A stretch of DNA of 64,000 bases from a virus. Shown in pieces: positions 3,911-62,885 of the stretch. Positions within the stretch are counted from its first letter, which is position 1; each line of letters starts with the position of its first letter. A model generated the notes under the pieces. It had not been told where the DNA came from, searched no databases, and worked only from the letters and a program-made list of their open reading frames with translations. The DNA is taken from the IMG/VR virus record IMGVR_UViG_3300023181_000028, positions 1 through 64,000 of that record; one strand, given 5' to 3'. The position numbers and the translations under genes were made by a program.

Positions 3911-3939
3911 GTTTACGAATACAATTCATTAAGGTTGCG
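3911..3939 (-). promoter_or_regulatory. ECF-sigma-like promoter CGCAAC-N16-CGTAAAC
   Basis: copy of 12-member motif, intergenic. Confidence 0.75.
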
Positions 3940-4509
3940 TTATTTTGCAATTTTCTTCTTAATCACTGAATTTATAGTTTCGGAGTAGCGCTTAGTGAAC
4001 AATTTAGCAAACGCGTCTATTACTTTAAAATCTGAATTAACAGCCTCCGTCCAATTTTTAGGTTTATCCCAAAGCTCTTTGTATTCCGCGCAAATAGATT
4101 TATAATTCGCCGCGCTTAAATATTCTGGGTGATAAGACAACATAGGATTGATTGTAAACACTTTCTTATCATAATTAGGTAGTAAGTATCCATTTTCAAT
4201 AAGATGCTTAAAATCCTCTCTAATTGATTTTACGTTCCCACTCAATTTTATACTAGGATTATACACAACATTTGCCGCCAAAACAGTTTCTTTAAAACTA
4301 ATTAATAAACGCGTGGAATATACAATCGTATTATCTGATTTAGATTGATATATAAGCCAGCTAAGCAAGGCAAATTCACTAGAAGGTAAATACATAGCGC
4401 AGTTAGTGAAATGCTTTGTAACCACCCTTGTTGTCTTTCCTCCGGTTAATTCCGGGAAATAAGGCAATGACTTAACCTGTGTAGATTCAATAGACTTAGT
4501 GTTAGCCAT
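3940..4509 (-). CDS. putative winged-helix DNA-binding protein (RepL-like)
   Basis: SEFALLSWL...KHLIENGYL...FTINP pattern typical of wHTH RepL-like proteins. Confidence 0.55.
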   Translation of the reverse strand: MANTKSIESTQVKSLPYFPELTGGKTTRVVTKHFTNCAMYLPSSEFALLSWLIYQSKSDNTIVYSTRLLISFKETVLAANVVYNPSIKLSGNVKSIREDFKHLIENGYLLPNYDKKVFTINPMLSYHPEYLSAANYKSICAEYKELWDKPKNWTEAVNSDFKVIDAFAKLFTKRYSETINSVIKKKIAK

Positions 4510-4753
4510 CTATTTCATCCGCCCCTCTGCCGGAATACTTCAATCCATTATTTATAACAAATCCAGATGGATCTATATAAACCTCTCCTTCTTTACACAA
4601 TTCACCATTAACAGTGATTGTCCTTGCACCAGATACATATATTCTATGTGCTAAAAGATAAGCGTCTATTGCCGTGGCAACTTCATCTCCTGTTAATGAT
4701 ACTTCAACTCCTGGGCCATATTCAGATTGACCTCTTCCATATTTTACAGTCAT
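4502..4753 (-). CDS. hypothetical protein
   Basis: 83 aa, overlaps both neighbours. Confidence 0.7.
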   Translation of the reverse strand: MTVKYGRGQSEYGPGVEVSLTGDEVATAIDAYLLAHRIYVSGARTITVNGELCKEGEVYIDPSGFVINNGLKYSGRGADEIDG

Positions 4754-4941
4754 AACTTCTGAAATAAAGCGTTCAACACCTTTAACTCAACCTGTATATT
4801 ATTTATACATTTTGATATTTCCTTTTTTAAATAGGATTTATCCTTCACAGTTTCTTTAACAGTGGTGTTAGGGCTTCTTTTAGCTTTAGCCTCAGTTACA
4901 AATTTGCCAGTCTTAGCTGAACGATTAATTGTTTTTTTCAT
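4750..4941 (-). CDS. small basic protein, RSAKTGxFV family
   Basis: RSAKTGKFVTEAKAKRSPNTTVKE motif. Confidence 0.7.
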   Translation of the reverse strand: MKKTINRSAKTGKFVTEAKAKRSPNTTVKETVKDKSYLKKEISKCINNIQVELKVLNALFQKL

Positions 4942-4952
4942 GGTTATTTATT

Positions 4953-5267
4953 TTAATTATCTTCTAAATTAGGGTTATTTTTAACCTTATCCAGCCATTT
5001 CCAGAAGGGGTCTTCCCTCATAATGATAGGATATTCACAATTAGTTCCGTGTGTAATAGCGTCAGATTTTGACTCTATAATAGCTATTAAAAGCCATTCC
5101 GCTCCCGTGAAATCGCGCGGAGTACCTAAATCATTAGCATCAATACATTTCTGCTTAATCCTTACTAAATCATCAACAATTGACTTCAATTTCCTTTGGC
5201 ATCTGCAAATACCGAAATAATAAGTTAAAATGTTTCCTATTTTATGCCATTCCTTATTATCTACCAT
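4953..5267 (-). CDS. hypothetical protein
   Basis: 104 aa ORF. Confidence 0.7.
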   Translation of the reverse strand: MVDNKEWHKIGNILTYYFGICRCQRKLKSIVDDLVRIKQKCIDANDLGTPRDFTGAEWLLIAIIESKSDAITHGTNCEYPIIMREDPFWKWLDKVKNNPNLEDN

Positions 5268-5564
5268 CTATACAGTTTGTAATTGTTCTTCTTTAATTTG
5301 TTCTTTAATATTCTCAAGTACATCCGCCGCGAATGTATCATCCAACTTTCGAAATTTTTCAGAATTAAACCTATACCTTTCTCCAACGATATTCGTTTGA
5401 TTAAAACCTACAAGGTAAACAGATCTATTATTAGGCATTCCGTCGCAAATATAAATTTCACCCTTAATAGGAAAAACTGTACCTGTCGGCGCGGATATTC
5501 CGGAAATCATACATTTGCCTAAAAATGCCTCAATACAAACCACGCGATCTCCCTGCTTAAACAT
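5268..5564 (-). CDS. hypothetical protein (SH3-like FKxGDRVVC start)
   Basis: MFKQGDRVVCI...GEIY. Confidence 0.7.
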   Translation of the reverse strand: MFKQGDRVVCIEAFLGKCMISGISAPTGTVFPIKGEIYICDGMPNNRSVYLVGFNQTNIVGERYRFNSEKFRKLDDTFAADVLENIKEQIKEEQLQTV

Positions 5565-5570
5565 AATCTT

Positions 5571-5852
5571 TTAAATTTTAGTATATTTTCGTTTAAACTG
5601 AGATACCACCATATCTCTCTCCCACCTACTTAACTTGCTTTTCTTTTCAAGAATTAATTTATATTCCTCGACTAAATTAACCTGTGGCATAGGACGGGAA
5701 TAATTACTTCCACCTATTCCTGACATAGCCATCATCATAGATGCCATCATAAGCATTTTAGGAGTCCGGCGGCTAGTGGGATGTTCTATTTCAGAATACC
5801 TCTCTCCATTAATTTCAAATACCCCATCATCTATTAAAGTTATACCTTCCAT
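5571..5852 (-). CDS. hypothetical protein
   Basis: first ORF after promoter-like motif at 5868-5897. Confidence 0.7.
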   Translation of the reverse strand: MEGITLIDDGVFEINGERYSEIEHPTSRRTPKMLMMASMMMAMSGIGGSNYSRPMPQVNLVEEYKLILEKKSKLSRWERDMVVSQFKRKYTKI

Positions 5853-5867
5853 AATATTTTTTCTTAT

Positions 5868-5897
5868 TTATACCCTATCTACTATGTAAAGGTTGCA
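5868..5897 (-). promoter_or_regulatory. ECF-like promoter variant TGCAAC-N17-GGTATAA
   Basis: perfect TGCAACCTT; -10 deviates from CGT. Confidence 0.55.
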
Positions 5898-5901
5898 AAA
5901 A

Positions 5902-6474
5902 TTATTCTTTAGCCCTTAATTTATCTCTCCACGCATTATTTACCCGCTGGTTGACCTTATTAAGATCCTTTAAATACATCATTTTATTACTAATCCGGCG
6001 CTTCTTTTCAACTTCTGGCGGAATAATAGACTTATGTTTCTTAGGCTTGTTTTTAGATTTATTATGAGGCTTACGCTCTTTTGGGTTCTTTTTAGTTCTA
6101 CCCTTTTTATCCTTAGCATAAGGATTATATACTTTTAATTGAATATTGTAAAACGGACTTAGCTTATTAATTTCCCTTTGTTCCAAATCATATAGCCTAC
6201 TCCGGTCAAATCCGGCCATATATTCTAAATGACGCTCAAAAACAAAATTATCTAATCCATGTAAGTCGAAATCAGCTTGAAGTTTATAATTGGAATGCTT
6301 TTTATGACTCAGGGCTAGTTTATGGCAATCAAACCTTCTTTCAAAATTGCCAGTGCTTCCAATGTAAATGTTATTGTTAACCACGCACCGAATAATGTAA
6401 ATCCCTGATCTGTATCCGATATATTTCTTCTTCAATATCTTTCCAAGCAATCTATCGTAAACTACATCAGCCAT
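5902..6474 (-). CDS. GIY-YIG endonuclease (homing-type) with basic tail
   Basis: SGIYIIRC...IYIGST, R..H, LEQ..I, YN motifs. Confidence 0.9.
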   Translation of the reverse strand: MADVVYDRLLGKILKKKYIGYRSGIYIIRCVVNNNIYIGSTGNFERRFDCHKLALSHKKHSNYKLQADFDLHGLDNFVFERHLEYMAGFDRSRLYDLEQREINKLSPFYNIQLKVYNPYAKDKKGRTKKNPKERKPHNKSKNKPKKHKSIIPPEVEKKRRISNKMMYLKDLNKVNQRVNNAWRDKLRAKE

Positions 6475-6523
6475 AGGATAATTAATAAGGTGGGGTAAAA
6501 TGATTCAAAAAGTGAACATTGTG

Positions 6524-7252
6524 TTAAAATCTATATTTATTGCAGCTTACAGCCATTACATAACCATTATGATAGTAAGAGTTTGGAATATCTTCCAGCA
6601 ACACTTTTACCTGATTCATGTTAGACGTTTTGATTATTTCTTTTCTGCCGTTAACGCAGAGAATAGAATTACTTTTCTTTAATTCTTTGATTCTATTATG
6701 TGCGGAACCAACGCTGCACCCTAACATGGATGCTATTTTACTCATAGATATGCTCATTAAGTCTTTTTCACCAGGTAACTTGTCTACATCTATATTCTTT
6801 CTTTTAACTGTCCTCTGAGCAGCTTTATATGAATTTAGATTTTGTGGGGTATGAAGGTCAAGGCTTAACTGCTTGTATCTATTAAATTGATTTTGCTTAT
6901 TCTTGAGAACTAGCAATTGAAGATCTTTGAATATTTGTTTTATACTATCAGCTATCTCAAACTTAACTATCACCTTTTTCTTATTGTGGTCAAACTTATT
7001 CAGCTTAACGAATAATAAATTCTTGCCGTGCATTTTACACCACCCGCTATTCAGAAATGATTTAATGTACTTACGGACGGCAGAAAGGCTTAGTCCAGAT
7101 TTTTCAGCTAATGATTTTTGGGTGTAATTGAAAACACAGGAATTAGAATAAAAAGACTTTAAATACAAAAACGCTGATAAATCTTTTAATCTTCCGCTTT
7201 TAGCGATAGCAATGAGATTTATTTTATTAATGTCTAAAGACCGATTATTCAC
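6524..7252 (-). CDS. two-HTH DNA-binding protein (replication-initiator/regulator-like)
   Basis: YTQKSLAEKSGLSLSAVRKYIK and ISMSKIASMLGCSVGSAHNRIKEL; GTG start. Confidence 0.75.
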   Translation of the reverse strand: MNNRSLDINKINLIAIAKSGRLKDLSAFLYLKSFYSNSCVFNYTQKSLAEKSGLSLSAVRKYIKSFLNSGWCKMHGKNLLFVKLNKFDHNKKKVIVKFEIADSIKQIFKDLQLLVLKNKQNQFNRYKQLSLDLHTPQNLNSYKAAQRTVKRKNIDVDKLPGEKDLMSISMSKIASMLGCSVGSAHNRIKELKKSNSILCVNGRKEIIKTSNMNQVKVLLEDIPNSYYHNGYVMAVSCNKYRF

Positions 7253-7258
7253 TTTCTA

Positions 7259-7311
7259 TTACAATTTTTGTAAGGATTTGTGATTTTTTGATTCTATTAC
7301 AGATTTTGTAA
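7259..7311. promoter_or_regulatory. paired palindromes TTACA-N5-TGTAA (7259-7273, 7297-7311), 38 bp period, locus 1
   Basis: same geometry at three other loci. Confidence 0.85.
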
Positions 7312-7312
7312 T

Positions 7313-7442
7313 AAAAAAGAAACCCTCACCTTTTGTTTTCTCTGTGTTCAGCAAAGAAGTGCTTGGTGAGGGTATTTAAAATGGCTAGAGGCCGGATATT
7401 AAATGTCTTACTTAACTTACTTTGCTGAACGGGATAAAATTA
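7313..7442 (-). promoter_or_regulatory. -7-like element (7435-7442) plus leader with competing antiterminator and terminator stems
   Basis: GTTCAGCAAAG/CTTTGCTGAAC 11-bp IR interleaved with ACCCTCACC/GGTGAGGGT 9-bp IR followed by T-run. Confidence 0.65.
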
Positions 7443-7481
7443 CTACATCCTTTCATTCTGTGCAAATATTATTTTGTTAAA

Positions 7482-7883
7482 TTATTTAATCTTCTGATTA
7501 TAATTTCCAATACACCTGCATCCGCCGAAGTTTACGCTATACCCATTACCTAAACTATCGTTTAAAAACAGGCTAAACTTATTCTCCTGAACTATATACC
7601 CATTGCCATACAATACCATTCCAGGATTGTAATACACGCTCAAATCATCTCCCGCCTTACAATTGAAAGATAAATCTGTGATAGCCGCGCCAACCTTATT
7701 AGCCTTAACCACCCCATTTAACTTAATAATCAATGTATCTCCCGCTGAATTAGAACTTCGATTAGGATAGATATACGCTGAGTATTTGTGTTCTTTAATC
7801 ACCACGGGCGGATTCACCGACGGAGTTAATGGTTCTTTCTTACAAGCCACTAACATTAACGATAGTATTATTATTTTTTTCAT
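7482..7883 (-). CDS. lipoprotein
   Basis: start reassigned to 7883: MKKIIILSLMLVA-C-KKE lipobox. Confidence 0.75.
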   Translation of the reverse strand: MKKIIILSLMLVACKKEPLTPSVNPPVVIKEHKYSAYIYPNRSSNSAGDTLIIKLNGVVKANKVGAAITDLSFNCKAGDDLSVYYNPGMVLYGNGYIVQENKFSLFLNDSLGNGYSVNFGGCRCIGNYNQKIK

Positions 7884-7887
7884 GTTG

Positions 7888-8199
7888 TTAAATAGTGTAT
7901 TTCCACCTTTTTTTATGTTTGTTTTCCCTCTTAACAGGTATTGTATAACTAACTCCAATTACAAATCCACCTACAGCAGCACCCCATATTGTACTAAATG
8001 GGTCTTTAGGAGTGAAAATAGACACTGAGCATCCAAGAGCAGTGGAGCAGATAGTTCCCATTATAGGATGATCTGTTTGTTTTCTGAATATTAATCCTGA
8101 TGTTACCGTCACGCCGCACCCGAAGTAATTGAATAGTTTGCCTTGGGGGAACTGCGCGGATAATCTTAAACATATCAGCATTAACACAGCCGTTCTCAT
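7888..8199 (-). CDS. membrane protein
   Basis: signal-like N-terminus and Gly-rich hydrophobic segments. Confidence 0.65.
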   Translation of the reverse strand: MRTAVLMLICLRLSAQFPQGKLFNYFGCGVTVTSGLIFRKQTDHPIMGTICSTALGCSVSIFTPKDPFSTIWGAAVGGFVIGVSYTIPVKRENKHKKRWKYTI

Positions 8200-8339
8200 C
8201 CGTAAATAACTCTTAGGTAAGCTAAATAAAGCTCCAAATTGAAATGACCGGGCTTACAATCATTATTATCACTTTCCCAGAACCTTTTTGCTACATCTAT
8301 ATTAAATGGATGTTGTGTGGGTTGTAAATTAGTGTCCAT
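8196..8339 (-). CDS. small hypothetical protein (47 aa, MDTNLQPTQHPF...), not in ORF track
   Basis: read manually; ATGA overlap with next gene; follows ECF-like promoter. Confidence 0.65.
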   Translation of the reverse strand: MDTNLQPTQHPFNIDVAKRFWESDNNDCKPGHFNLELYLAYLRVIYG

Positions 8340-8366: not shown

Positions 8367-8395
8367 TTTTACGAAAAACATATATAAAGGTTGCA
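8367..8395 (-). promoter_or_regulatory. ECF-like promoter TGCAAC-N16-CGTAAAA
   Basis: motif copy at head of leftward arm. Confidence 0.8.
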
Positions 8396-8717: not shown

Positions 8718-8747
8718 TGCAACCTTTTGCAACTTCCGCGCGTATAA
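8718..8747 (+). promoter_or_regulatory. ECF-like promoter TGCAAC-N17-CGTATAA
   Basis: motif copy at head of rightward arm. Confidence 0.8.
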
Positions 8748-8772: not shown

Positions 8773-9522
8773 ATGCAGAAGAAAAAACAGGTTATAATGC
8801 TGCCTACAGATAAAGCAAGTAATATTTTATTATATCCTAAAGAGTTTAAAATAAACTACAGCAAAGTTCCTTGTTTTGGATTTGAAGAACAGATGTTAGC
8901 TCAACATCTATACATTCTATCAGATGAAGAAATAAAAGAAGATGATTGGTTTATTGAATGCATAGATAATGGTAGTGTAAATGCACCACATTATAGTATT
9001 AATAAGATGATTAATCCTAAATATTCAATTGAAGAAGAAACTTATTCAGCAATTGGAATAAATGGAGATGAACATACTTGTGGATATCACAATACTAAAA
9101 AAATAATAGCAACTACTAATTCTGAATTATTAGAACATTCTTTAACAAGAGAAATAAATGGATTTAGTGGTCATATTCCCCTGCCTAGAATATCTCAAGA
9201 CTTCATTGAAGCTTATATTAAATCATATAATGAAGGTAATGTGATTAAAGATGTAATGGTAGAGTACAAAGAAATAGTAGATGAAGTAGGAAGAGATAAA
9301 TTATCTAGCGGCGGAACGATAGGAAGATATTCGGTTAAAAAGAATCTTAAAATCAGATCTGATAACACTATTATAATCAATAGGGTTAAAGAAAAGAAAT
9401 ATACAGCAGATCAAATGAAAGAATTTGCCATAGCCTGTTGTTATGCTTCTCAAATTGATGGCGATCACAAATCAACTTTAGACATTGTGAATAACGCCTT
9501 CGATAAAAATTATCCTGAATAA
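8773..9522 (+). CDS. conserved Bacteroidota-phage hypothetical protein
   Basis: QHLYILSDEEIKEDDW...KKIIATT...LPRISQDFIEAY motifs. Confidence 0.8.
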   Translation: MQKKKQVIMLPTDKASNILLYPKEFKINYSKVPCFGFEEQMLAQHLYILSDEEIKEDDWFIECIDNGSVNAPHYSINKMINPKYSIEEETYSAIGINGDEHTCGYHNTKKIIATTNSELLEHSLTREINGFSGHIPLPRISQDFIEAYIKSYNEGNVIKDVMVEYKEIVDEVGRDKLSSGGTIGRYSVKKNLKIRSDNTIIINRVKEKKYTADQMKEFAIACCYASQIDGDHKSTLDIVNNAFDKNYPE

Positions 9523-9543
9523 TTAATTATAAAATCAATAAAA

Positions 9544-9729
9544 ATGGAAAAATACCTGTTACCCTTGTTTATTTATTACTTCTTTGCGTTATTAATAATT
9601 TCGGATGACAAAACTATTGATCGTGCGGCGAAAAAAGTATCTCATGCTGTTGATACTTCCGTATCGGATTACGCGGAGAATAACCTAATATCTGCTACAA
9701 TTAAACAATACAAAAACTATAAACCATGA
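9544..9729 (+). CDS. small membrane-anchored protein
   Basis: N-terminal hydrophobic helix. Confidence 0.6.
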   Translation: MEKYLLPLFIYYFFALLIISDDKTIDRAAKKVSHAVDTSVSDYAENNLISATIKQYKNYKP

Positions 9730-9866
9730 AAACTTATACAAAAGACGAAGTGATTAAATTAATCTATGCTTATGAAAACTATTTAATGGGAAGTATCGGA
9801 AGAGATGGTTATTATAATGGAATAGACTTCGTAGAAGAATTTCTTAAAGAAAACCCTATTAAATAA
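9726..9866 (+). CDS. small hypothetical protein (46 aa, MKTYTKDEVIKLI...), not in ORF track
   Basis: read manually; ATGA overlap. Confidence 0.65.
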   Translation: MKTYTKDEVIKLIYAYENYLMGSIGRDGYYNGIDFVEEFLKENPIK

Positions 9867-9881
9867 TAATTTGCAAATAAA

Positions 9882-9911
9882 TGCAACCTTATTACCTTTA
9901 CATTCGTTAAA
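9882..9911 (+). promoter_or_regulatory. ECF-like promoter TGCAAC-N17-CGTTAAA
   Basis: motif copy. Confidence 0.8.
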
Positions 9912-9936
9912 CATACAAGTTCTTTAAAAACATTTA

Positions 9937-10290
9937 ATATTGCTTCGGTGGCCTAAATATAGGTAAAGTGTTGTGAGGCTAGCGCACGAGCAAGCAAAGG
10001 GAATGTAAAGTCCCGGCCCACCGAACGCAATATGATATTTCTTGCTTGAAGATAAACAATAGAGCAGTACGATACTTCCTTTAAGTGGGAAATACGCTGT
10101 ACATCTATAATCTATATCCAATAGATGTTGTTTATTGTAGAGATAATACTTTATGTAGTGGAGCCTTGGCAAGTACTCAGAAATGAGGAGATGTGAAGCT
10201 ACATATTGTCGGATTATTCCTTTGGAAATGGGACAAGAGATAAGAGCATTAGTACCGCAACCTTTTTAAGGCGTAGAAGCGGGCTAATGT
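9937..10290 (+). ncRNA. candidate multi-domain structured RNA or long structured leader
   Basis: five consecutive closed stem domains in a region with no sense ORF, directly after a promoter. Confidence 0.65.
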
Positions 10291-10311
10291 TTCTTTTAAA
10301 ACTTAAAAATT

Positions 10312-10524
10312 ATGCAAACAGTAAAATATCATTTTAGTTTCTCCACGCAAAGCAAGGAGCCTATCACTGAGTCTCAGTTTATACGACTTATCAAATATCA
10401 AAAGAACTTAGACACTCTATTGATAAATGACTCAACTATATCTCAACAAAAAAGGCTTGCATTATGGGCGGAAAGTCAAAGAACAATTAAATTCTTAAGA
10501 AACTATGGGACTTATAACGGATAA
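10312..10524 (+). CDS. hypothetical protein
   Basis: 70 aa ORF with A-rich upstream region. Confidence 0.65.
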   Translation: MQTVKYHFSFSTQSKEPITESQFIRLIKYQKNLDTLLINDSTISQQKRLALWAESQRTIKFLRNYGTYNG

Positions 10525-10651
10525 ACCTTACAGAAGGTTAAACAGGGAAACCGGACTATTTGAATGGGTGTATCCTGAGCCAACTCAATACGATCAGAAA
10601 GACGTTCTTAAGCCTATTAAGATAGTTAAACCTAAAAGAAGGAAGAGATGA
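10505..10651 (+). CDS. small hypothetical protein (48 aa, MGLITDKPYRRLNRE...), not in ORF track
   Basis: read manually; fills gap; ATGA overlap with 10648. Confidence 0.6.
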   Translation: MGLITDKPYRRLNRETGLFEWVYPEPTQYDQKDVLKPIKIVKPKRRKR

Positions 10652-11061
10652 GTGTTTATGAGCAACGTATTGCCGCGCAACTCTATCATTTTTATGAGAG
10701 GTATAAAGAATACGAAGACCCTCTAAGCAGGTATCATTCACACTTGCATCTAGACCTCGTATTCGACCATTTAAAGGAGAGAAATAAGGAAATAGTGTTA
10801 GAGGGAGATATTAAAGATAAGTTGTGGAAAATGGCTATAATTGAATGTAAGGAACAACACGTCTCGTGGATGAAAGCATTAAAAGATAAGAGACTGGCTC
10901 AAACCGCAAAGGAATTATTAACGGCGGAAAAAATAAGATTTTTCAAGACATACATCACTAGATACTTCCTTTTAGAGAAACTAAAGGATGGTATATGGGT
11001 TCAGGTTACAGACGATGAAACAGGTAAAAAGGTTAGCTTATTAAGTTTTGTAGGGAAATGA
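10648..11061 (+). CDS. hypothetical protein
   Basis: 137 aa, coupled to helicase start. Confidence 0.75.
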   Translation: MSVYEQRIAAQLYHFYERYKEYEDPLSRYHSHLHLDLVFDHLKERNKEIVLEGDIKDKLWKMAIIECKEQHVSWMKALKDKRLAQTAKELLTAEKIRFFKTYITRYFLLEKLKDGIWVQVTDDETGKKVSLLSFVGK

Positions 11062-12617
11062 AAGAACTCCGCGCATACCAATCCGAATGTATAAATACGG
11101 TTCAAAATGAACTAATTTCCGGCATTTCATCTCAATTGATCGTCATGAGTATGGGGCTAGGAAAGACTTTCACTGCCGTTAAGATGACAGAACAGCTTGG
11201 ATTTAAAAGTGTATTATGGGTAACGGATGATGAGCGCCTGCTTGAGCAATCTGCATTAGCGTTCGCTTATGATAAGTTTGAACCTGAATTAGTGGAGAAA
11301 ATAGCTAAGAACGGCCTGCTTAATTACATAAGATCCGGCGGAACGTTCAATGGGTATAAAATGGGGGTTATCAAAGCAGACTTGTTTAAGCCTGATGGCG
11401 ATGTAGTTTTTTGTTCCGCGCAAACATTATGGCGGAGATTAGATAAGTTAGATCCTTACAAATACGACTGTCTCATAATAGATGAATGCCACCTCTTCGG
11501 AGCCAATACATTTTTTAAAGGTATTTCACACTTCCACCCTAAACTGAGGCTAGGATTAACCGGAACTCCATTTAGGAAAGACGGCATGATGCTATCTGAT
11601 ATATTCCAAAAGATTGTATTTGAATACAATATGTTAGAGGGTATTAAATCAGGGTACTTGTGTGAACTAGATGCAATCAGGATTAAGACAAATTGCTCAT
11701 TGGACGGAGTGCATACGCTGGCAGGTGACTTTAACGAAAAAGAACTATCTGATGAATTGAACACTTTGGCGCGTAACAACTTAATCGCTCAGTCTTATAT
11801 TAAGTACTGTAAGGGTCGCCAAGCCATCGGATTTGGAATTGATATACAACATTGCATTGATCTTGCAGAAGCCTTTAGACAGCACGGAATTAGCGCAATA
11901 GCCATATCCAGCGACGAGGAAAGAACCGGAGATAAGAATATTGGAATTAAACAATATAGAGAAGGGATAATTGAGGTTATATTCAGTGTTAATCTATTAA
12001 GTAAAGGATTTGACCATCCCGATACCGGATGCACAATAGCGGCAGCCCCAACTAAATCAATAGTAAGATATTTACAAGGGCCAGGAGGAAGAGGAAGTCG
12101 ATTGAAGTCCGCGGAATACGTTTCTAAATTTGGACAAAATTGTATAATTTTAGACGTGGTGGATAATACCACTAAACACAACCTTATTAATGCTTGGGAA
12201 TTAGACAAACAAAAGCCAGTTGAAGAAAGAACTTTTATAAGTCAGGATAAGAAAGATAAATTACTAGCCGTTCGAAATGCTACAAAAATATCCCACGAAA
12301 GAAAAGAGGATGAAATTGTTAAACTTTTGCAGATACCTAGACTCAAACTATCTAAGTTCTACACAATGTCTGATGATGCCACGCCCGCTCAAATAGAAGC
12401 GATCAAAAAATTTGGATATACTGATGAAGTTCATTACACAAAGTTTATGATAACCGAGATATTTGCAGCGCAGCCAGTTACACCATCTCAATGGGGATGG
12501 CTAAAATATAAGGGATATGATGTGTCGGGTAAAGTGATAACGCGCGGAGAGTTTGAAGCGGCAAGAAGAGAAGTGGAAAGAAAAGAAGAAAAGAGAAACC
12601 TTAATAAGAAATTTTAG
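11058..12617 (+). CDS. SF2 DExH-box helicase
   Basis: LRAYQ, MGLGKT, DECH, TGT, GFDHP, Q..GGRGSR motifs. Confidence 0.92.
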   Translation: MKELRAYQSECINTVQNELISGISSQLIVMSMGLGKTFTAVKMTEQLGFKSVLWVTDDERLLEQSALAFAYDKFEPELVEKIAKNGLLNYIRSGGTFNGYKMGVIKADLFKPDGDVVFCSAQTLWRRLDKLDPYKYDCLIIDECHLFGANTFFKGISHFHPKLRLGLTGTPFRKDGMMLSDIFQKIVFEYNMLEGIKSGYLCELDAIRIKTNCSLDGVHTLAGDFNEKELSDELNTLARNNLIAQSYIKYCKGRQAIGFGIDIQHCIDLAEAFRQHGISAIAISSDEERTGDKNIGIKQYREGIIEVIFSVNLLSKGFDHPDTGCTIAAAPTKSIVRYLQGPGGRGSRLKSAEYVSKFGQNCIILDVVDNTTKHNLINAWELDKQKPVEERTFISQDKKDKLLAVRNATKISHERKEDEIVKLLQIPRLKLSKFYTMSDDATPAQIEAIKKFGYTDEVHYTKFMITEIFAAQPVTPSQWGWLKYKGYDVSGKVITRGEFEAARREVERKEEKRNLNKKF

Positions 12618-12629
12618 TAAAACCAATAT

Positions 12630-13214
12630 ATGAAAGAAATAAAAGGATCTATATCCTACACATTACAAATCTCTGATTCCGGCGAATGGACAGTTACATA
12701 CGGAACAGAAGGTCAATCAGAAGAGGATTCTGTGCATAATGACATAGCTTCTCTTGTGATTGCTCAGAATGTTATGGAGCAATGCGCCGCCACTATGAAA
12801 CTTAATAAAGAATCATTAAAGGGCAGAGATAAGAAATACATGACCCAAAAGCTAGATAAGGTGATTGATGGTAGGTTTGGATTAAAACTTATCGCGGATT
12901 ACCTGATTGATTGCTATGAAGGCTATATGGAGTTCTTATCTAAGAAAGCGTCGGACAAAGAAGCTAATCCTAAAGCAGAACAAGTTACAATGACTGAGGA
13001 AGAAATTAAAATGGCTAAAGAAACCCATGACAGGCTCACTAACGAATTAGTTAAAGGAGTGTTGGATAAATATCCAGATCACGTAAATTCATATAAAGAA
13101 GGGCAAACAGGACTGCTGGGGATGTTCGTTGGAGAGGCTATGAAGGCATCGAAAGGTAAAATAGATCCAAAATATCTAAATAACATTGTTAAAAATCAAT
13201 TAGATGGATTATAG
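12630..13214 (+). CDS. protein with C-terminal GatB/YqeY-like domain
   Basis: VLDKYPDHVNSYKEGQTGLLGMFVGEAMKASKGKIDPK resembles the GatB C-terminal tail. Confidence 0.8.
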   Translation: MKEIKGSISYTLQISDSGEWTVTYGTEGQSEEDSVHNDIASLVIAQNVMEQCAATMKLNKESLKGRDKKYMTQKLDKVIDGRFGLKLIADYLIDCYEGYMEFLSKKASDKEANPKAEQVTMTEEEIKMAKETHDRLTNELVKGVLDKYPDHVNSYKEGQTGLLGMFVGEAMKASKGKIDPKYLNNIVKNQLDGL

Positions 13215-13386
13215 TGAGTTTATAGGTGCGGCATTGGCGGAACCTCTAGGGGATGGAATGTGGAATGTATATGCTAATGGTTTTGTAAAGATTAGTGATT
13301 GTTCCGGCGACACAGAGTTTGAAGCCAAAGAAGACGCTTGGAGATACATACAAAGACTTAAAGATAAAATAGATGAAAAAGATTAA
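13204..13386 (+). CDS. hypothetical protein
   Basis: 60 aa, overlaps neighbours. Confidence 0.65.
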   Translation: MDYSEFIGAALAEPLGDGMWNVYANGFVKISDCSGDTEFEAKEDAWRYIQRLKDKIDEKD

Positions 13387-13729
13387 ATTAGAAGAGCAAT
13401 TCCAATTAGGAGATCAGGTGTATCTCTACACTAAAAACGATGAAGGTAAGCCTATTATTAAATCAGTGGCATCCTCAAATGTAAAGAAAGAGAAAGAAAA
13501 GAAGGCTTTTGTGCCACCCACCCTGGCGGATGTAATTGTATTCTTTAATAAGAATGGGTACGATAATGAACTTGCTAAAAAGTTTTTTAACGGCTACGAT
13601 GTAGCTGAATGGAAAGACAGCAATGGCAGACAAATACATAATTGGCAACAGAAAGCCCACCAAGTTTGGTTTAGAGATACTAACAAACTACCCGTTAAAG
13701 AGAAACAAGAGTCTAAATTCATGTTTTAA
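13373..13729 (+). CDS. replisome-organiser C-terminal-like protein (putative helicase loader/partner)
   Basis: FVPPTLADV...AKKFFNGY...WKD..G..I.NWQ motif, directly upstream of DnaB. Confidence 0.7.
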   Translation: MKKIKLEEQFQLGDQVYLYTKNDEGKPIIKSVASSNVKKEKEKKAFVPPTLADVIVFFNKNGYDNELAKKFFNGYDVAEWKDSNGRQIHNWQQKAHQVWFRDTNKLPVKEKQESKFMF

Positions 13730-13731
13730 CC

Positions 13732-15144
13732 ATGCAAGAAGCACATAGTCTGGATATGCAGACAAAACTATTGGGGGTGTACATGGGTAATCCCGATGCA
13801 TTCTCTCATGTAGAAAACTTATTCAAATCAAACATCTTCACCACAACTATCTATAAACACTGTTTTAAGATCATTACAGCGTATCATGCCAAGAATATAA
13901 AGTCTGATATGAATATTATCTTAAACGCTCTTATAAAGGCTGGAATAGATAAAAAAGAGGCTGCTATGTCAGTGTCTAAGTTAGATGTTTACACCCACCT
14001 ATCCGCCGGACAAATAGCTGAATATGTTACATCCCTATTTGAAGAAGCCCTTACAAATGATCTTGTTCCCTTTATCGAGAATGTTGCCTCCACTACAAAC
14101 CCACAGAATGTATTTGAGAAGATAGGGGAGTTGAAGGATAAGATTAATCGCGTGGAGTTGACGGTTAATAACGTTAGCAAGGAAGTGAGTATTAAGACTC
14201 AGTTTAAAGAGGCGGTTAACAGAATTAAGAATTTAAAGACGGGTAAAATAGAACAAGCTGGATTTAGCTGGGGTATACCCTCTTTAGACAAAAAAACTCT
14301 TGGAATAGTTCAGGGGATCAACATTGTCGCGGCATCAAAAGGCGGTGGAAAATCCTCAATTTTGATAAATATTATCGTGGAGAACGTTGTAAAAAAACAA
14401 CTTCCTATGTTATTTTTCTCTATGGAGATGACTGCAATTGAAGTGCTAACAAATGTGATCGCTAACGTGCGTAGGATTAATTCTAAAGCACTTAGAACCG
14501 GACAAGTTGACGAGAATGACTTAATTGATATTGAAGCCATAGAGGGCAGATTAAATGAATCTTTTGTCATTGACCCCACCGGCGGAATAACCCACCAATA
14601 TTTTAAAGCGAAAGCAAGGGCGTTTAGAAAGGCTAATAATATACCAGATAATGAAACTATATTAGTGGCACTAGATTATTTGGGACTTATGAAAAATACA
14701 CCGGACGAGGCCAAGATGACTAAGGAAGAGAAGATAGAGCAAATATGCACCGAATTAATGTGTAGCTGCAAGGATGAAAATATCGCTTTAGTTAAACTTG
14801 CTCAATTCGGAAGAGAACTAGACAGGCGCGGTAATGATAGCTACGCAGTTAAAAACGATTCGGATAAACTAAGAGCTTTACGTCCTAAAATGAGCGATCT
14901 TAAGGGTTCCTCTGCAATTGAAAGTAATGCGGTTACTATTCTTTTACTATACAGACCTAGTTATTATGGGATATTAGAGTCGGACGGGAAAGACTTTCGC
15001 GGACTTTGCGAGATAAACATAGCAAAAGGACGGTACGTGAATCCTGAGCCTGTATATGTGAAATTCAAAGGAGAATATTCTTTATTTCAGGATATTGAAG
15101 AGAGTGAATCGGCAATACAATCAACAGAAGAACCTCCCTTTTAA
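13732..15144 (+). CDS. dnaB: DnaB-like replicative helicase
   Basis: ASKGGGKS, FSMEM, LDYLGL, LAQFGR, PKMSDLKGSSAIE, IAKGR. Confidence 0.95.
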   Translation: MQEAHSLDMQTKLLGVYMGNPDAFSHVENLFKSNIFTTTIYKHCFKIITAYHAKNIKSDMNIILNALIKAGIDKKEAAMSVSKLDVYTHLSAGQIAEYVTSLFEEALTNDLVPFIENVASTTNPQNVFEKIGELKDKINRVELTVNNVSKEVSIKTQFKEAVNRIKNLKTGKIEQAGFSWGIPSLDKKTLGIVQGINIVAASKGGGKSSILINIIVENVVKKQLPMLFFSMEMTAIEVLTNVIANVRRINSKALRTGQVDENDLIDIEAIEGRLNESFVIDPTGGITHQYFKAKARAFRKANNIPDNETILVALDYLGLMKNTPDEAKMTKEEKIEQICTELMCSCKDENIALVKLAQFGRELDRRGNDSYAVKNDSDKLRALRPKMSDLKGSSAIESNAVTILLLYRPSYYGILESDGKDFRGLCEINIAKGRYVNPEPVYVKFKGEYSLFQDIEESESAIQSTEEPPF

Positions 15145-15160
15145 AATAATTGCAAAATAA

Positions 15161-15189
15161 TGCAACCTTATTCTTTTTATCACGTTTAA
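15161..15189 (+). promoter_or_regulatory. ECF-like promoter TGCAAC-N16-CGTTTAA
   Basis: motif copy, intergenic. Confidence 0.8.
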
Positions 15190-15207
15190 CTTATAAAATA
15201 ACCAACT

Positions 15208-15681: not shown

Positions 15682-15692
15682 AACCATAAACT

Positions 15693-16508: not shown

Positions 16509-16510
16509 TC

Positions 16511-17794: not shown

Positions 17795-17806
17795 AAAACA
17801 ACAAAC

Positions 17807-17992: not shown

Positions 17993-17993
17993 C

Positions 17994-18024
17994 TTGCAAA
18001 ATAATACAATGTTGCATATATTTA
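17994..18024 (+). promoter_or_regulatory. sigmaA-type promoter TTGC-N19-TATATTTA
   Basis: -33/-7 geometry of Bacteroidota promoters upstream of SSB-like gene. Confidence 0.6.
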
Positions 18025-18059
18025 CAAACAAATACATAAACCAATAAAACAAAACAATT

Positions 18060-49167: not shown

Positions 49168-49183
49168 AAAGCAAATATACTAC

Positions 49184-49838: not shown

Positions 49839-49859
49839 AACGGTAAATGTAAAAATAAA

Positions 49860-49888
49860 TGAAACCTTTTGCAAATAATTGCGTAATA
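49860..49888 (+). promoter_or_regulatory. ECF-like promoter TGAAAC-N16-CGTAATA
   Basis: motif variant heading a single inverted gene. Confidence 0.75.
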
Positions 49889-54556: not shown

Positions 54557-54580
54557 TGAATGTAATTTTGATAAAAGTAC

Positions 54581-57641: not shown

Positions 57642-57658
57642 CTGTAAGTTGTTTCCAC

Positions 57659-57829
57659 AAATATACTAAATAAAAAAGCCGCCCATTAAAAGCGGCTCCA
57701 AATGATCTTTTGCCATTTAAACATTCCTTACACGTCTGCAAGGCGATAATCGTAATCCCGATTCTCTCTGATGCGCTGGTCAAGTGGAAGCGTAGAGTTG
57801 CTGCGGTAAATATACTAAATAAAAAAGCC
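57659..57829. repeat. 22-bp direct repeat AAATATACTAAATAAAAAAGCC (57659-57680, 57808-57829)
   Basis: on minus strand each copy is a terminator tail fused to a TATATTT(G/A) promoter element. Confidence 0.9.
57672..57802 (-). ncRNA. candidate ~130-nt structured small RNA (cassette 2)
   Basis: -7 element 57807-57814; terminator 57672-57696; internal hairpins. Confidence 0.65.
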
Positions 57830-57964
57830 TCCGGTTAAAGAGGCTTAGTAAAGTGTTCAGTCTTCACTTCGTAAACGTTTTATAGGTTTTATTTTAATCT
57901 CGGCGAACGTTAACCACTTTTAACCGAAAAGGATTGAGTTTTAAATCTATTACAAATATTGTAA
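57821..57964 (-). ncRNA. candidate ~145-nt small RNA (cassette 1)
   Basis: -7 element 57970-57977; terminator 57821-57846; no ATG inside. Confidence 0.6.
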
Positions 57965-58002
57965 TGAAACAAATATAATTAAAATCCTTACAAATTCTGT
58001 AA
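57950..58002. promoter_or_regulatory. paired TTACA-N5-TGTAA palindromes (57950-57964, 57988-58002), locus 4
   Basis: 38 bp period; brackets the -7 element of sRNA cassette 1. Confidence 0.85.
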
Positions 58003-58862: not shown

Positions 58863-58891
58863 TTAAACGCAAACAATCTCACAAGGTTGCA
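58863..58891 (-). promoter_or_regulatory. ECF-like promoter TGCAAC-N16-CGTTTAA
   Basis: directly after a terminator; ATG 6 nt after -10. Confidence 0.8.
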
Positions 58892-60104: not shown

Positions 60105-60113
60105 ATACTATGA

Positions 60114-61607
60114 TTAAGATTTATAGATAATACCGCACTCTTGAGTGTTGTAAATAACCATTAAATCTTCTTTTAACATTGCGTATTTCATTACGTCTTC
60201 CTCTGAAATCATTGTTTCATTGGCACCGGTCATACCGTTAAACTTAGCTGTTACACTTGCACGGTTTAATCCGTTTGCTTCTTTAGCAAGGATTTCCATG
60301 TTCATGTTAGAACCAGAACCTAAATTCATAATGAATAAGGTAGAGCTTAACAATAGTTTTCCGTCAGCACCTCTCTCAGGGAACGCAGCTTCGTCATCAA
60401 ACAACGGGTGTTTAACAAGGATCATTGTGTTACCATTGATGTTGAATTTACCGAAGTTGTATCCGGCATCCACGATTGCACCACCAGCTTGTCCATTTTG
60501 AGTTACATTAGTAACGATTTGGATGTTTTGATTACCAAGTAAGTTAATCAGTTTCTTTTGACCATTTGCATAGCCATCAGTACCGGTAATACCTACCCAT
60601 GTGAATCCTGACACCTTATCGCCTTTTTTCTCAAGTTGACCCATCATGTCAGCGATATCGTCTTCTGTCCACTCTCCGTTTAAGCCTGAACCGTATGCTA
60701 CGTTACCGCCAGCAACTTGCTCTTCCCAGCCGTCACCTTGAACGATCTCAAGACCTGTTTCAGTATCAATTAAGTTTGAACTTGCACGGATAGTACCATC
60801 AGCATTTTTCATACTTGATACACCAAACAACTTGTTACGCTCGTCTTCCATTACGAAAGTAGCTTGCGCTTGCGCTAATTCTTGATACATCCAACCTTTA
60901 GAGAAAGCTCCACCTTCACCTTCGTAGTTATACCAAAGTACATTTGAAGCAGCTCCACCGGTGATACCAACAGTTTTACGTTGAATAGTCATGTGGTTAA
61001 CAAACTTACTAGGCGCAGCCGAACGACCGTAACCACGAAGTGATTTCTCTCCATATGAAGTGTAAACTCCAAAGCAGGTTTTAGTTCCTTGTTGTGGCGC
61101 TACGTGAGTTGCATAGCTAAACAAATCACCAGATGGAGATTGGAAGCTATATAAGTAACCCGCAGAAGGGGAACCTGTAGGGAAAGCCATTACACGAGCG
61201 ATAAAACGACCTGTGTAGAAAGCAACGTTCATTCCCGGTACTAAGTGCTTATCGCGCATTAACAACTGGAAAGAACCGTCAGGCTGAGTAGCACCAACTT
61301 GTTTAATGATCTCAGATGCTTTCTCAATACGACCCATAACGTCAAATTGATAAGCGTTTGCTCCGATACCTTTACCTTTAGTTGTTACTTGAGGAATTTT
61401 AGTACGCTCAGGGTTAACGATACCATAAGGTGTTACCGCGCCGGATACTAAGATTGTAGTTAAAGCTCTACGATTCGCATACTCTAACATGTTTCGGATT
61501 GCAGGCTTATTGGCCTGATTTTTCATAAGGTCATTGTTAGTAACACAAGTGTCTTCCGAAAATACACCTTGATTAATACTAATTCTACCTGCGTGTGATG
61601 ATGGCAT
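60114..61607 (-). CDS. major capsid protein (crAss-like HK97 fold)
   Basis: 497 aa; YGEKS..G, NHMTIQRK...ITG, GDGW.EQ, TG..G, HPLFDD; follows portal and scaffold. Confidence 0.88.
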   Translation of the reverse strand: MPSSHAGRISINQGVFSEDTCVTNNDLMKNQANKPAIRNMLEYANRRALTTILVSGAVTPYGIVNPERTKIPQVTTKGKGIGANAYQFDVMGRIEKASEIIKQVGATQPDGSFQLLMRDKHLVPGMNVAFYTGRFIARVMAFPTGSPSAGYLYSFQSPSGDLFSYATHVAPQQGTKTCFGVYTSYGEKSLRGYGRSAAPSKFVNHMTIQRKTVGITGGAASNVLWYNYEGEGGAFSKGWMYQELAQAQATFVMEDERNKLFGVSSMKNADGTIRASSNLIDTETGLEIVQGDGWEEQVAGGNVAYGSGLNGEWTEDDIADMMGQLEKKGDKVSGFTWVGITGTDGYANGQKKLINLLGNQNIQIVTNVTQNGQAGGAIVDAGYNFGKFNINGNTMILVKHPLFDDEAAFPERGADGKLLLSSTLFIMNLGSGSNMNMEILAKEANGLNRASVTAKFNGMTGANETMISEEDVMKYAMLKEDLMVIYNTQECGIIYKS

Positions 61608-61632
61608 AATTTTTAGTTTTTAAGATTTTAGT

Positions 61633-62802
61633 TTAATTGCCAAATTCTTTGTCTAATGCTGTCCAATTATCAGTTTCTGTGTTTGTTGGTTGTTTTGATC
61701 CACCTCCTGCGGTTTTCACCGTAGGGATGTTTAAAAGTTTATTAGTGTGATCCGCTTTCGCTTTCTCAGAAACCTTGTTCTTGATATGCGCGACAGCTTT
61801 TGCCTCTAACTCCCTTTTCACTATATACTCCGCTCTACTGCTTGCACTCGACAATTCCTTATCATACACGCCATTGGTGTATTTAGTGATAAGTGCATCC
61901 ATGACTTTTTTCGGTATCTTCACTCCCGCAATCTCTTGGATCTTACCAAGCTCATTGATAGTTTCGGTACGTTCTAATGCCTTTTTTTCATCGGCTGCCT
62001 TTTGTTTTTGTGCTGTGTATTTCTGGATTATATTAGTATGCTCTAAGGCCATAGCCTCTTTTTGATTATTTAGTTCAACGCGAATCTTAGCCGCGCTATG
62101 GTCAATCTTTCCGCTCTCAATAAGGTCTTCAATCTCCTTATCAATCATTTCATTAGTCCAATTAGGAATAGTGGCTAATTCAGCTCTCACTAACTCCACA
62201 TCGTCTAATTTAAGATAACCTTCAATTTCTTTAGTGGGTTCTAATAGTAAATGATCTGGAACTCCAAGTTCTTTCATTTCTAAAGCAGCCGCCACTTTAG
62301 GATCAAGATTAGCGAAATAAGTTTCTTTGCTTACCTGCGCTTGCTTCTCAGCTTCTGCTTTAGTGATATAAACCTCTTTAAAGGCTTCCGCAGTGTCTTC
62401 CTTAATGTCCGCGCCTAATTTCTGAGCAATGGCTTTAAATGAGTTCTCTGGATATACAATGGGAGCATCTGACTCTTCATCTAATGTTAATTCATCAGCA
62501 GTAGCCGCCAATTTAGCAGCCTCAATTTCTTCTTTTGTAGATGTTTCAGGTAAGTTTAAAGCCTTAGCTTCTTCTGCCAAAGCAGCTTTATTGGTTTCCT
62601 CTAATGCTAAAGCATCAGCAACGGCTTTTTCTGTTTCGGCTGTTTTCTCGGCAACCTGCTCAGGAGTTTCATCAACATCCTTAGTAATAACTTCTTCTTG
62701 TTTCTCTTCCTGTTTTGGTGTAGCATCCCCAAATTCTTGAGATGAGGTCAATGCGTCCCAATTAGCTTCAACCGTCTCGGTCGATTTATTTGTTTCTGAC
62801 AT
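61633..62802 (-). CDS. scaffold-like acidic protein
   Basis: acidic helical protein between portal and MCP; -7 element at 62829-62836. Confidence 0.75.
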   Translation of the reverse strand: MSETNKSTETVEANWDALTSSQEFGDATPKQEEKQEEVITKDVDETPEQVAEKTAETEKAVADALALEETNKAALAEEAKALNLPETSTKEEIEAAKLAATADELTLDEESDAPIVYPENSFKAIAQKLGADIKEDTAEAFKEVYITKAEAEKQAQVSKETYFANLDPKVAAALEMKELGVPDHLLLEPTKEIEGYLKLDDVELVRAELATIPNWTNEMIDKEIEDLIESGKIDHSAAKIRVELNNQKEAMALEHTNIIQKYTAQKQKAADEKKALERTETINELGKIQEIAGVKIPKKVMDALITKYTNGVYDKELSSASSRAEYIVKRELEAKAVAHIKNKVSEKAKADHTNKLLNIPTVKTAGGGSKQPTNTETDNWTALDKEFGN

Positions 62803-62856
62803 GGTTAATAATTTTAATAGTTATTGCGTAAATGTACAATTTTTTAACATTCAAAA

Positions 62857-62885
62857 TGCAACCTTATTAAAATTTCAACGTAGCT
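62857..62885 (+). promoter_or_regulatory. ECF-like promoter TGCAAC-N16-CGTAGCT, antisense to portal gene
   Basis: motif copy back-to-back with scaffold/MCP promoter. Confidence 0.6.

Follow-up and report, generated by a model that had tools for sequence, protein, structure and literature searches.

Introduction

The textbook examples of sigma-switching phages (phiEco32, SPO1, and T4) supply their own sigma factor, such as gp55 of T4 and gp28 of SPO1, which are both phage-encoded. Here we describe a repeated two-box element in the phage record IMGVR_UViG_3300023181_000028 of IMG/VR. The element resembles the promoters of extracytoplasmic function (ECF) sigma factors and is found in front of genes other than those for the virion. 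The record is 80,011 bp long and complete according to CheckV; its first 64 kb (64,000 nucleotides) is the stretch of DNA analyzed here and is referred to as the window. A + or - following a position denotes the strand.

Like this phage, phiEco32 has a lytic, podovirus-sized genome of ~77-80 kb in which a class of alternative-sigma promoters is repeated genome-wide (PMC12276001). The phiEco32 middle and late (virion) genes depend on its own sigma gp36, along with gp79, and the promoter carries AATGTA at position -11.5 (PMC12276001). In contrast, no sigma gene was detected in the phage studied here, and its virion genes lack the motif. In the crAss-like phage phi14:2 the early genes are transcribed by a virion RNA polymerase, whereas the middle and late ones are transcribed by host polymerase from primary-sigma-like promoters (bioRxiv 10.1101/2020.03.07.982082). 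This phage and phi14:2 are distantly related by TerL and have in common a replication block with SNF2 and DnaB and a Bacteroidota host, which for this phage is deduced below. They differ in that the present phage family has no recognisable homologue of gp66 and carries a sharp ECF-type motif before non-virion genes.

Among bacterial promoters, the consensus for Bacillus subtilis sigmaW is TGAAAC-N16-CGTA. It has the same form as the phage motif, and several Paenibacillus or Bacillus sites were among the matches listed from a motif scan of genome contigs. However, B. subtilis belongs to another phylum, whereas the phage has translation signals and -7 boxes of Bacteroidota type. In Flavobacterium psychrophilum, which belongs to the phylum of the inferred host, an atlas of transcription start sites (TSS) contains a SigECF class (SM6) defined by a conserved CGT box, and the five SM6 promoters in its supplement read [GA][TC]AA[CT]-N16-CGT[ATC]T (PMC9723704). 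The phage motif resembles this class in having [GA][TC]AAC at -35, 16 nt to CGT, a -10 element of the CGT[AT]T type and A/T-rich flanks. The SM6 -35 element is loose (GTAAC, ACAAC, ACAAT; PMC9723704), while that of the phage is a near-invariant 9-mer, TGCAACCTT. The two also differ in what they control: the SM6 regulon consists of T9SS (type IX secretion) and envelope genes, and that of the phage of 14 units in 80 kb.

Results

Intergenic Enrichment and Geometry of the Motif

The complete motif reads TG[C/A]AACCTT-N13/14-[C/G]GT[AT][AT]A; its -35 element is TGCAAC and its -10 element CGT. The spacer of 13 or 14 nt following the 9-mer equals 16-17 nt following TGCAAC, the distance at which the sequence-only reading of this window had placed CGT(A/T). 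The first box alone, YGMAACCTT, was found in 17 copies in the window compared to 2.24 ± 1.6 copies in shuffled sequences (shuffle maximum 7). In the whole record the two-box motif was found 15 times, and 14 of these copies were located in intergenic DNA, which makes up 8.7% of the genome (binomial p = 2e-14). An equal frequency within genes and upstream of them, which the sequence-only reading had set against its own proposal, is therefore not what is found.

All 12 sites of that reading were recovered, each on its strand and at its position. Most -10 blocks are CGT[AT][AT]A; a GGTATA variant is found at 5897-, the GGT site noted earlier at 5868-5897, and at 74162- and 74894+. At 10 of the 12 sites with the strict pattern a start codon on the same strand follows 8-30 nt past the end of the -10 block. 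A position weight matrix (PWM) was built from the motif sites and used with a cut-off of 16 bits.

Conservation in Related Phages

A motif scan of viral contigs returned three near-complete records, G001, G002, and G003, which are syntenic with this phage (G000) at 35-60% protein identity. The PWM found 14, 8, 8, and 11 sites in G000, G001, G002, and G003, respectively, with 33 of the 41 sites being intergenic (p = 1e-27). An orthologous site is located directly past DnaB at 15161 in G000, at 59485+ in G001 and at 16661+ in G003. The island adjoining the gene for a 1476-aa virion protein bears the motif in all four genomes, and in G000 the island was found to be inverted along with its promoter. 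For one gene of the accessory cassette behind site 58891-, a relative is located in the early region of G001. Alignment of TerL brought in 29 more related fragments (361 kb), which contained 20 sites, while a control pattern with both boxes reversed had none.

The 60 distinct sites of the family have an A/T-rich consensus, T-G-[C/A]-A-A-C-C-T-T-(T), N12/13, C(67%)-G-T-W-W-A-A(90%). In this consensus AAC was imposed by the search pattern, while the A at the seventh -10 position (90%) was not. C precedes GT at 67% of the 60 sites and the remainder carry [GAT]GTATA. The spacer is 13 nt at 34 sites and 14 nt at 26 sites, and its letters are unconserved. Such an arrangement, two boxes at a fixed distance with a free spacer between them, is characteristic of sites that a sigma factor recognizes. 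Judged by these sequence features, the motif is very likely an ECF-type (group IV sigma) promoter that serves as a regulatory signal throughout the family.

At several sites in G000 a TTGCAAA-like element (aaTTGCAAAataaTGCAACC) is located 5-7 nt 5' of the -35 box (3895-3925, 9860-9882, 15145-15161, and 36250-36267). Since only 8 of the 60 family sites have it, the element is no general part of the promoter.

Comparison to Host ECF Promoters

The likeness to ECF promoters proposed in the sequence-only reading holds for both boxes and for their spacing: the AAC-N16/17-CGT[AT] geometry of the phage equals that of the TSS-mapped SM6 promoters of F. psychrophilum. The T of CGT would be at position -10, provided that the 61-nt SM6 strings span -50 to +10.

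In one Mucilaginibacter and one Flavobacterium genome several ECF genes have [TG]G[CT]AAC-N16/17-CGT upstream. One of the Flavobacterium ECF sigma genes is followed by a membrane anti-sigma-like gene and has orthologs in four other genomes. All five orthologous Flavobacterium-like ECF sigma/anti-sigma operons are preceded by caTGCAACC[ACT]TTT-N-CGTCTA (caTGCAACCnTTT-N-CGTCTA), and ECF paralogs retain GCAACC, GTAACC, or CCAACC followed by TTTT at the equivalent position. These Bacteroidota self-promoters (L307-L309, L327, L328, L354, and L359) have the TGCAACC[TCA]TT core, the 13-14 nt spacer and the CGT at -10 in common with the phage. They differ in what follows CGT, which is CTA, CTT, or ATT in the bacteria and TAA, AAA, TTA, or ATA in the phage, or GGTATA as the whole block; the genomes are a sample rather than demonstrated hosts.

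Searched with the phage PWM, 7 of 49 regions upstream of ECF genes scored at least 14 bits compared to 10 of 2155 background regions (p = 3e-8), and with orthologs counted once the number was 3 of 45 (p = 0.002). We also inspected the first 40 matches listed to TGCAACCTT-N13/14-CGT from 401 Bacteroidota genomes. Among these first 40, ~27 were within long open reading frames (ORFs), as expected by chance, and ~13 were intergenic; two of the ~13 were located directly before ECF sigma genes, at 2 and 28 nt (p = 0.002). The same two genomes have four more of the intergenic matches, 16-33 nt before genes for signal-peptide proteins, namely two paralogous proteins of 421 and 424 aa, a TonB-receptor-like protein and a 260-aa protein. 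From these sequences it looks like the two genomes hold a small ECF regulon with the exact -35 core and spacing of the phage. A host ECF sigma, one of the two readers suggested by the sequence-only reading, is a viable candidate, given that host ECF sigma genes have this core in front of them.

The motif scan of genome contigs was of little use as a route to sigma genes, as the matches listed were mostly chance and the ORFs downstream of them were not sigma genes. In a Flavobacterium sp. metagenome-assembled genome a 287-aa sigma70-family gene (L278, G007:C37:11893-12570) has TGTAACTTTT-N-CGTAAAA upstream, which scores 20 bits by the phage PWM. The size of this gene is that which we would expect of a Bacteroidota primary sigma.

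Search for a Phage-Encoded Sigma Factor or RNA Polymerase

Sequence methods were used throughout to look for a sigma factor. The models Sigma70_r2, Sigma70_r4_2, Sigma70_ECF, and TIGR02937 matched nothing in the 80-kb record except two weak helix-turn-helix (HTH) stretches in a 242-aa protein. This protein was rejected as a sigma since Pfam, PDB sequences and the ESM Atlas all describe it as a tandem winged-helix protein, and it is present in G000 and G001 only. A hidden Markov model (HMM) of 36 Bacteroidota ECF sigmas, run with filters off (--max) against six-frame ORFs of the four genomes, found no sigma (best E 0.0025). The best match, in G002, was the HTH of an HNH endonuclease, and so was the '93%' match of G002 in hhalign; this protein, too, was rejected as a sigma candidate. 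Comparison by hhalign of 182 phage protein families to the ECF sigma alignment gave matches to 25-residue HTH stretches only, and no ECF gene was found in the 29 TerL-related fragments. The absence of a sigma gene from the window, stated in the sequence-only reading, thus held in these searches. Its suggestion of a phage sigma encoded outside the window did not, as none was detectable in the other 16 kb or in the three whole relatives. The non-virion proteins common to all four genomes are either 82-151 aa long or GroES-, nuclease-, recombination-partner-, or TerS-like, and a common phage sigma of ordinary size is therefore unlikely.

A T7-like RNA polymerase was not found in the phages, the protein families of 2041, 1476, 659, and 468 aa have no conserved DxDxD, and the large virion proteins have no PHROG or Pfam polymerase matches. 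Searches of PDB sequences with seven phage proteins returned nothing relevant. The 2041-aa virion protein (30094-36219, -) is part of a family with more than 140 members, giant proteins encoded on contigs of 70-80 kb; ParB, His_Phos, LPD, ART-PolyVal, and Kinase-PolyVal domains are found in some of them. The presence of polyvalent-protein domains indicates that these are injected 'polyvalent' proteins and not polymerases. In G001 and G002 the protein is encoded by two separate genes, and in G000 it has a HEAGH zincin-like motif close to residue 1094. By these sequence comparisons neither a sigma factor nor an RNA polymerase is recognisable in the phages.

Location of the ECF-Type Sites

The gene map of the record begins with small genes at 184-8339 (-). 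The replication block at 8773-23796 (+) encodes a SNF2-type helicase, a YqeY-domain protein, DnaB and a GroES-like protein. The virion and packaging block at 23875-67294 (-) encodes tail-fibre-like proteins, the 2041-aa and 1476-aa virion proteins, portal and TerL. Recombination genes, for an exonuclease, a DnaA-C HTH protein, a J-domain protein and a Dda-like helicase, reach up to 74144 (-), and small genes follow at 74931-79637 (+). Three short islands on the plus strand, 36304-37894, 41458-42726, and 49906-50313, are located inside the virion block.

Among the first small genes, the intergenic promoter at 3912-3939 (-) (CGCAACCTT-N13-CGTAAA, 25.1 bits) has 20 nt between the end of the -10 block and the ATG and heads the genes from 3892 down to 184. 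The GGTATA variant at 5869-5897 (-) (N14, 28.9 bits) heads the genes from 5852 down to 3940, including that for a 189-aa winged HTH (wHTH) protein with a RepL-like fold. The promoter at 8368-8395 (-) (TGCAACCTT-N13-CGTAAA, 29.7 bits) heads the genes from 8339 down to 5902, which are small ORFs and the genes for the double-wHTH protein and a GIY-YIG nuclease. Divergent from it, the promoter at 8718-8746 (+) (N14, CGTATA, 30.0 bits) heads a 249-aa gene at 8773-9522 and two small ORFs. In the replication block, 9882-9910 (+) (N14, CGTTAA, 30.5 bits) is followed by ~400 nt without a convincing ORF and then by the genes for the SNF2 helicase, the YqeY-domain protein and DnaB, while 15161-15188 (+) (N13, CGTTTA, 31.4 bits) is located directly past DnaB and heads 15208-23796.

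Within the virion block the promoter at 36267-36294 (+) (N13, CGTTAA, 30.1 bits) heads the island 36304-37894, which encodes a YopX-like protein and others, with a predicted leader of ~3 nt. The promoter at 41419-41446 (+) (N13, CGTTAA, 31.3 bits) heads the island 41458-42726 with a DUF7275/DUF7277 protein, an island whose counterparts in G001, G002, and G003 bear the motif as well, and that at 49860-49887 (+) (TGAAACCTT-N13-CGTAAT, 25.1 bits) heads the single gene 49906-50313 and overlaps a TACATTTA box at 49844-49851 on the opposite strand. On the minus strand, 58864-58891 (-) (N13, CGTTTA, 30.4 bits) is located past a terminator-like hairpin and heads two accessory genes from 58856 down to 57988. 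The whole-record scan found three further strong sites beyond the window, at 72935-, 74162-, and 74894+.

The claim of the sequence-only reading that the motif heads accessory and replication units thus stands for 10 of its 12 sites. The other two, 29338-29365 (+) (N13, CGTAGA, 20.0 bits) and 62857-62884 (+) (N13, CGTAGC, below the 16-bit cut-off), head nothing, and no plus-strand ORF was found downstream of either. The first is antisense into the 3' end of a 234-aa gene and back-to-back with a TACATTTA box at 29303-29310 (-). The second is antisense into the 3' end of the portal gene and back-to-back with a TACATTTA box at 62829-62836 (-). The regions 29287-29365 and 62803-62883 are apparent copies of one cassette, consisting of a TACATTTA box on the minus strand and a gene-less ECF-type site on the plus strand. 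A possible role of the cassette is to occlude promoters or to produce RNA antisense to the portal and 234-aa genes.

Copies of the 9-mer at 10256+, 19358-, 33370-, 36348-, and 56792+ were rejected as promoters. They lack a correctly spaced -10 element, the spacer at 36348- being 11 nt, and are probably due to chance.

The ~400 nt at 9911-10311 (+) gave an RNA fold with z = -2.74. No Rfam match was found for this region or elsewhere in the window. It may represent a long structured leader, or else a non-coding RNA, in front of the replication genes. Between two divergent GGTATA-type sites, at 74145-74930 of G000, there are 786 bp of G/T-rich non-coding DNA; the relatives have comparable G/T-rich spacers (TGCAACCTTtggatggtgtgtggAGTATA) in the equivalent site, and the stretch is a candidate origin or genome end. 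Homing-endonuclease genes were found in the early regions of two phages, GIY-YIG in G000 (5902-6474, -) and HNH with a C-terminal HTH in G002 (13795-14505, +), both directly upstream of an ECF-type site.

Promoters of SigmaA Type

The nine TAnnTTT(G/A) elements that the sequence-only reading had assigned to structural units are all present, each on the minus strand with a start codon 3-26 nt downstream, and have the form of a sigmaA-type -7 box. The TACATTTA box at 29303-29310 (-) is located 16 nt from the ATG of a 227-aa gene of the virion block and the TATCTTTA box at 30078-30085 (-) 7 nt from the ATG of the 234-aa gene. The distances are 3 nt from the TATATTTG box at 36223-36230 (-) to the start of the 2041-aa polyvalent virion protein and 20 nt from the TACTTTTG box at 41316-41323 (-) to a 659-aa gene. 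The TATATTTG box at 49172-49179 (-) is 4 nt from a 276-aa gene, for which a leaderless mRNA is predicted, and the TACATTTA box at 49844-49851 (-) is 5 nt from the ATG at 49838. Past a terminator-like hairpin, the TACTTTTA box at 54572-54579 (-) is 15 nt from a 107-aa gene. The remaining two are the TATATTTG box at 57658-57665 (-), 16 nt from a 273-aa gene, and the TACATTTA box at 62829-62836 (-), 26 nt from a 389-aa gene.

With a unit start defined as a gene start with a gap of at least 30 nt in front, a TAnnTTT[GA] box was found 3-32 nt before the start at 9 of 14 unit starts of the virion block compared to 6 of 32 others (p = 0.005). Of 12 TATATTTG copies, 7 are intergenic. Only one unit of the virion block is headed by the ECF-type motif, the two-gene accessory cassette at 58891-. 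Other observations blur the picture. TACCTTTG and TAACTTTG boxes of sigmaA type are found ahead of small early-like genes at 75.4-77 kb, and a TATATTTG box is also found at ~8590+. The ECF-type sites 72935- and 74162- lie upstream of the terminase genes, and the only box in between is TAAATTTG. The assignment of virion units to TAnnTTT boxes is partly supported: the split between ECF-type promoters for non-virion units and sigmaA-type promoters for virion units is real but not clean. A scan for sigma70-type promoters was at chance level (30 vs 28.7).

At four places, the pairs 29338/29303, 36267/36223, 49860/49844, and 62857/62829, an ECF-type -35 element is located 21-50 bp upstream of the predicted late-type start on the opposite strand. 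The two holoenzymes would be unable to occupy the DNA there together and would compete. As far as the sequence goes, this arrangement fits two programmes that would be separate in time and mutually exclusive.

Many mRNAs of both classes are predicted to be leaderless or to have leaders of 1-6 nt, with boxes close to the start codons. Taking the T of CGT as -10, predicted leaders are 1-6 nt at 36267+, 41419+, 58891-, 72935-, 74162-, and 74894+. TTACA-N5-TGTAA palindromes were found at 7259-7320, 41355-41410, and 57945-57975, beside boxes of sigmaA type as well as between divergent promoters. They resemble operators, and the protein acting on them would be one of the conserved wHTH proteins, either the 118-aa protein encoded at 79615-79971 or the RepL-like 189-aa protein at 3940-4509. 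The region 57642-57987 (-) has three TATATTT[GA] boxes ahead of the 273-aa gene, the first two each being followed by a terminator-like hairpin; these may give small transcripts or act as attenuators.

Genome Context and Host Phylum

The genome of this soil phage has a GC content of 37%, and the runs listed as containing its DNA are two leaf-litter metagenome DNA runs and no RNA runs. The closest kin of its TerL are crAss-like phages, yet the identity is only ~25%. Megablast of 24 kb of the window against a phage collection gave zero matches, and DnaB as sole query against viral contigs retrieved no relative. In all four phages Shine-Dalgarno-like 4-mers precede just 3-7% of the genes, and the 20 nt 5' of the starts contain 46-49% A. 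The giant virion protein of one relative is filed under uncultured Flavobacterium. The scarcity of Shine-Dalgarno-like 4-mers, the A-rich upstream regions and the TAnnTTTG boxes together point to a host among the Bacteroidota.

The 227-aa and 234-aa genes (28603-29286 and 29366-30070, -) are tandem paralogs that have a single counterpart in each relative. Their products appear beta-rich by composition alone and have Cys-rich C-termini (CDCGCGC and CACNCGC).

Discussion

Because the phages have no recognisable sigma or RNA polymerase, and the same core and spacing are found before host ECF operons, a host ECF sigma is the most likely reader of the motif. Provided that the motif is a promoter, we consider host RNA polymerase with a host ECF sigma to be its probable reader. 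In the account that we favor, ECF-type promoters would drive the non-virion units, that is the small genes that look early, the modules for replication and for recombination and the moron-like cassettes in the virion block. A host ECF sigma would become available during infection and join host RNA polymerase. The virion genes would use the primary-sigma -7 boxes TAnnTTT[GA], and at the four opposed sites both holoenzymes would compete. Taken as a whole, ECF-type promoters of non-virion units read by a host ECF sigma, we give this account only a slight preference.

Several observations weigh against it. Anti-sigmas normally keep ECF sigmas bound, and no means by which the phage would release one was identified. 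The host -10 element is CGT[CA]T[TA] while that of the phage is CGT[TA][AT]A or [GAT]GTATA; the two thus agree closely without being identical, and the cognate sigma may differ from those sampled. The exact pattern is rare in the 401 Bacteroidota genomes, with 0-5 copies in each, which is about the level of the control. The ECF regulons found are small, no large host regulon is visible by counts of the exact pattern, and the 40 host matches inspected were taken in listing order and are a non-random sample. Finally, most early phage proteins lack annotation, and phage sigmas can evade sequence methods, as phiEco32 gp36 is 'a distant homolog' (PMC12276001).

The last points bear on the alternative that survives best, in which the ECF-type promoter is read by a highly diverged phage sigma expressed from the sigmaA-type boxes at 75-77 kb, and the motif is a conventional middle class. 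Phage sigmas are often barely detectable (PMC12276001), most early proteins of this phage belong to no family, and the TACCTTTG and TAACTTTG boxes at 75.4-77 kb could mark an immediate-early class. In the Atlas a cluster of look-alikes of the 242-aa double-HTH protein is annotated Sigma70_r4_2/Sigma70_ECF, at rank 24 and thus a lead only. However, this protein is confined to G000 and G001. The four sigma HMMs, the custom ECF HMM and hhalign were all negative for the four genomes, the 29 fragments have no ECF gene, and the shared non-virion proteins are small or resemble other proteins, as described above. In addition, host ECF promoters have the identical -35 core; the reader would therefore require a host-like region 4, which should be detectable. 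We regard a diverged phage sigma as rather unlikely.

Sigma appropriation is less likely still, and we consider it improbable. T4 MotA acts at about -35, and in a MotA/AsiA type of system TGCAACCTT would be bound by a phage protein, for example the 118-aa wHTH protein (79615-79971) with a small partner, that recruits the primary-sigma holoenzyme. The box is located at about -35 and wHTH proteins are conserved in all four phages. Nevertheless, the downstream [C/G]GTwwAA is unlike the Bacteroidota sigmaA -7 box TAnnTTTG, the full geometry equals that of mapped ECF promoters, and the same motif is found in promoter context in host genomes without the phage.

It is very unlikely that a phage RNA polymerase uses the motif as its promoter, whether that polymerase arrives with the virion, as in crAss-like phages and N4, or is synthesized early. 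The TerL is closest to that of crAss-like phages, whose early genes use a virion polymerase, and the virion proteins of 2041 and 1476 aa are giant. However, the large proteins have no conserved DFDxD or DxDxD, there is no T7-like polymerase, and the 2041-aa family bears polyvalent effector domains rather than polymerase domains. Early transcripts of phi14:2 have no common upstream motif, whereas two boxes with a free-sequence spacer of fixed length are a sigma signature. We can hardly credit a non-promoter function, be it as a site on the DNA used in replication, packaging, or recombination or as a leader element at the RNA level. RepL-like and DnaA-C-like DNA-binding proteins are encoded, but the motif is strictly in sense orientation, start codons follow it at a short, fixed distance, each transcription unit has one copy, and the motif consists of two boxes, an architecture that is also found before host genes.

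With host ECF sigma as the favored reader, the temporal order of the programme can be read in two ways. The sequence-only reading had proposed that the usual order is inverted. A conventional cascade is possible and fits the sequence as well, with sigmaA-type promoters for immediate-early genes, ECF-type promoters for middle genes and activated sigmaA-type promoters for late genes. The ECF-type class may fill the place that the virion polymerase has in crAss-like phages.

The inverted order leads to a bolder proposal that we consider possible but doubtful: a crAss-related family without a virion polymerase or a sigma of its own would start its programme by hijacking an envelope-stress ECF sigma of the host. 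Infection, or an injected factor such as the polyvalent protein with the zincin motif, would free the sigma from its anti-sigma, and the freed sigma would fire ~14 phage promoters that copy its self-promoter. At the overlapping divergent sites it would repress the primary-sigma late promoters, with antisense transcripts entering the portal gene, and the virion genes would follow on the housekeeping sigma. In the literature we found no account of a promoter class like this in Bacteroidota phages, nor of a lytic phage relying on a host ECF sigma, an absence that is weak evidence of novelty.

If true, the stress alarm of the host would be the ignition key of the phage, which would tie envelope-stress signalling to phage susceptibility in Bacteroidota. 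It would also show a possible substitute for the virion polymerase in crAss-related phages, and would offer a compact orthogonal promoter set for Bacteroidota genetics.

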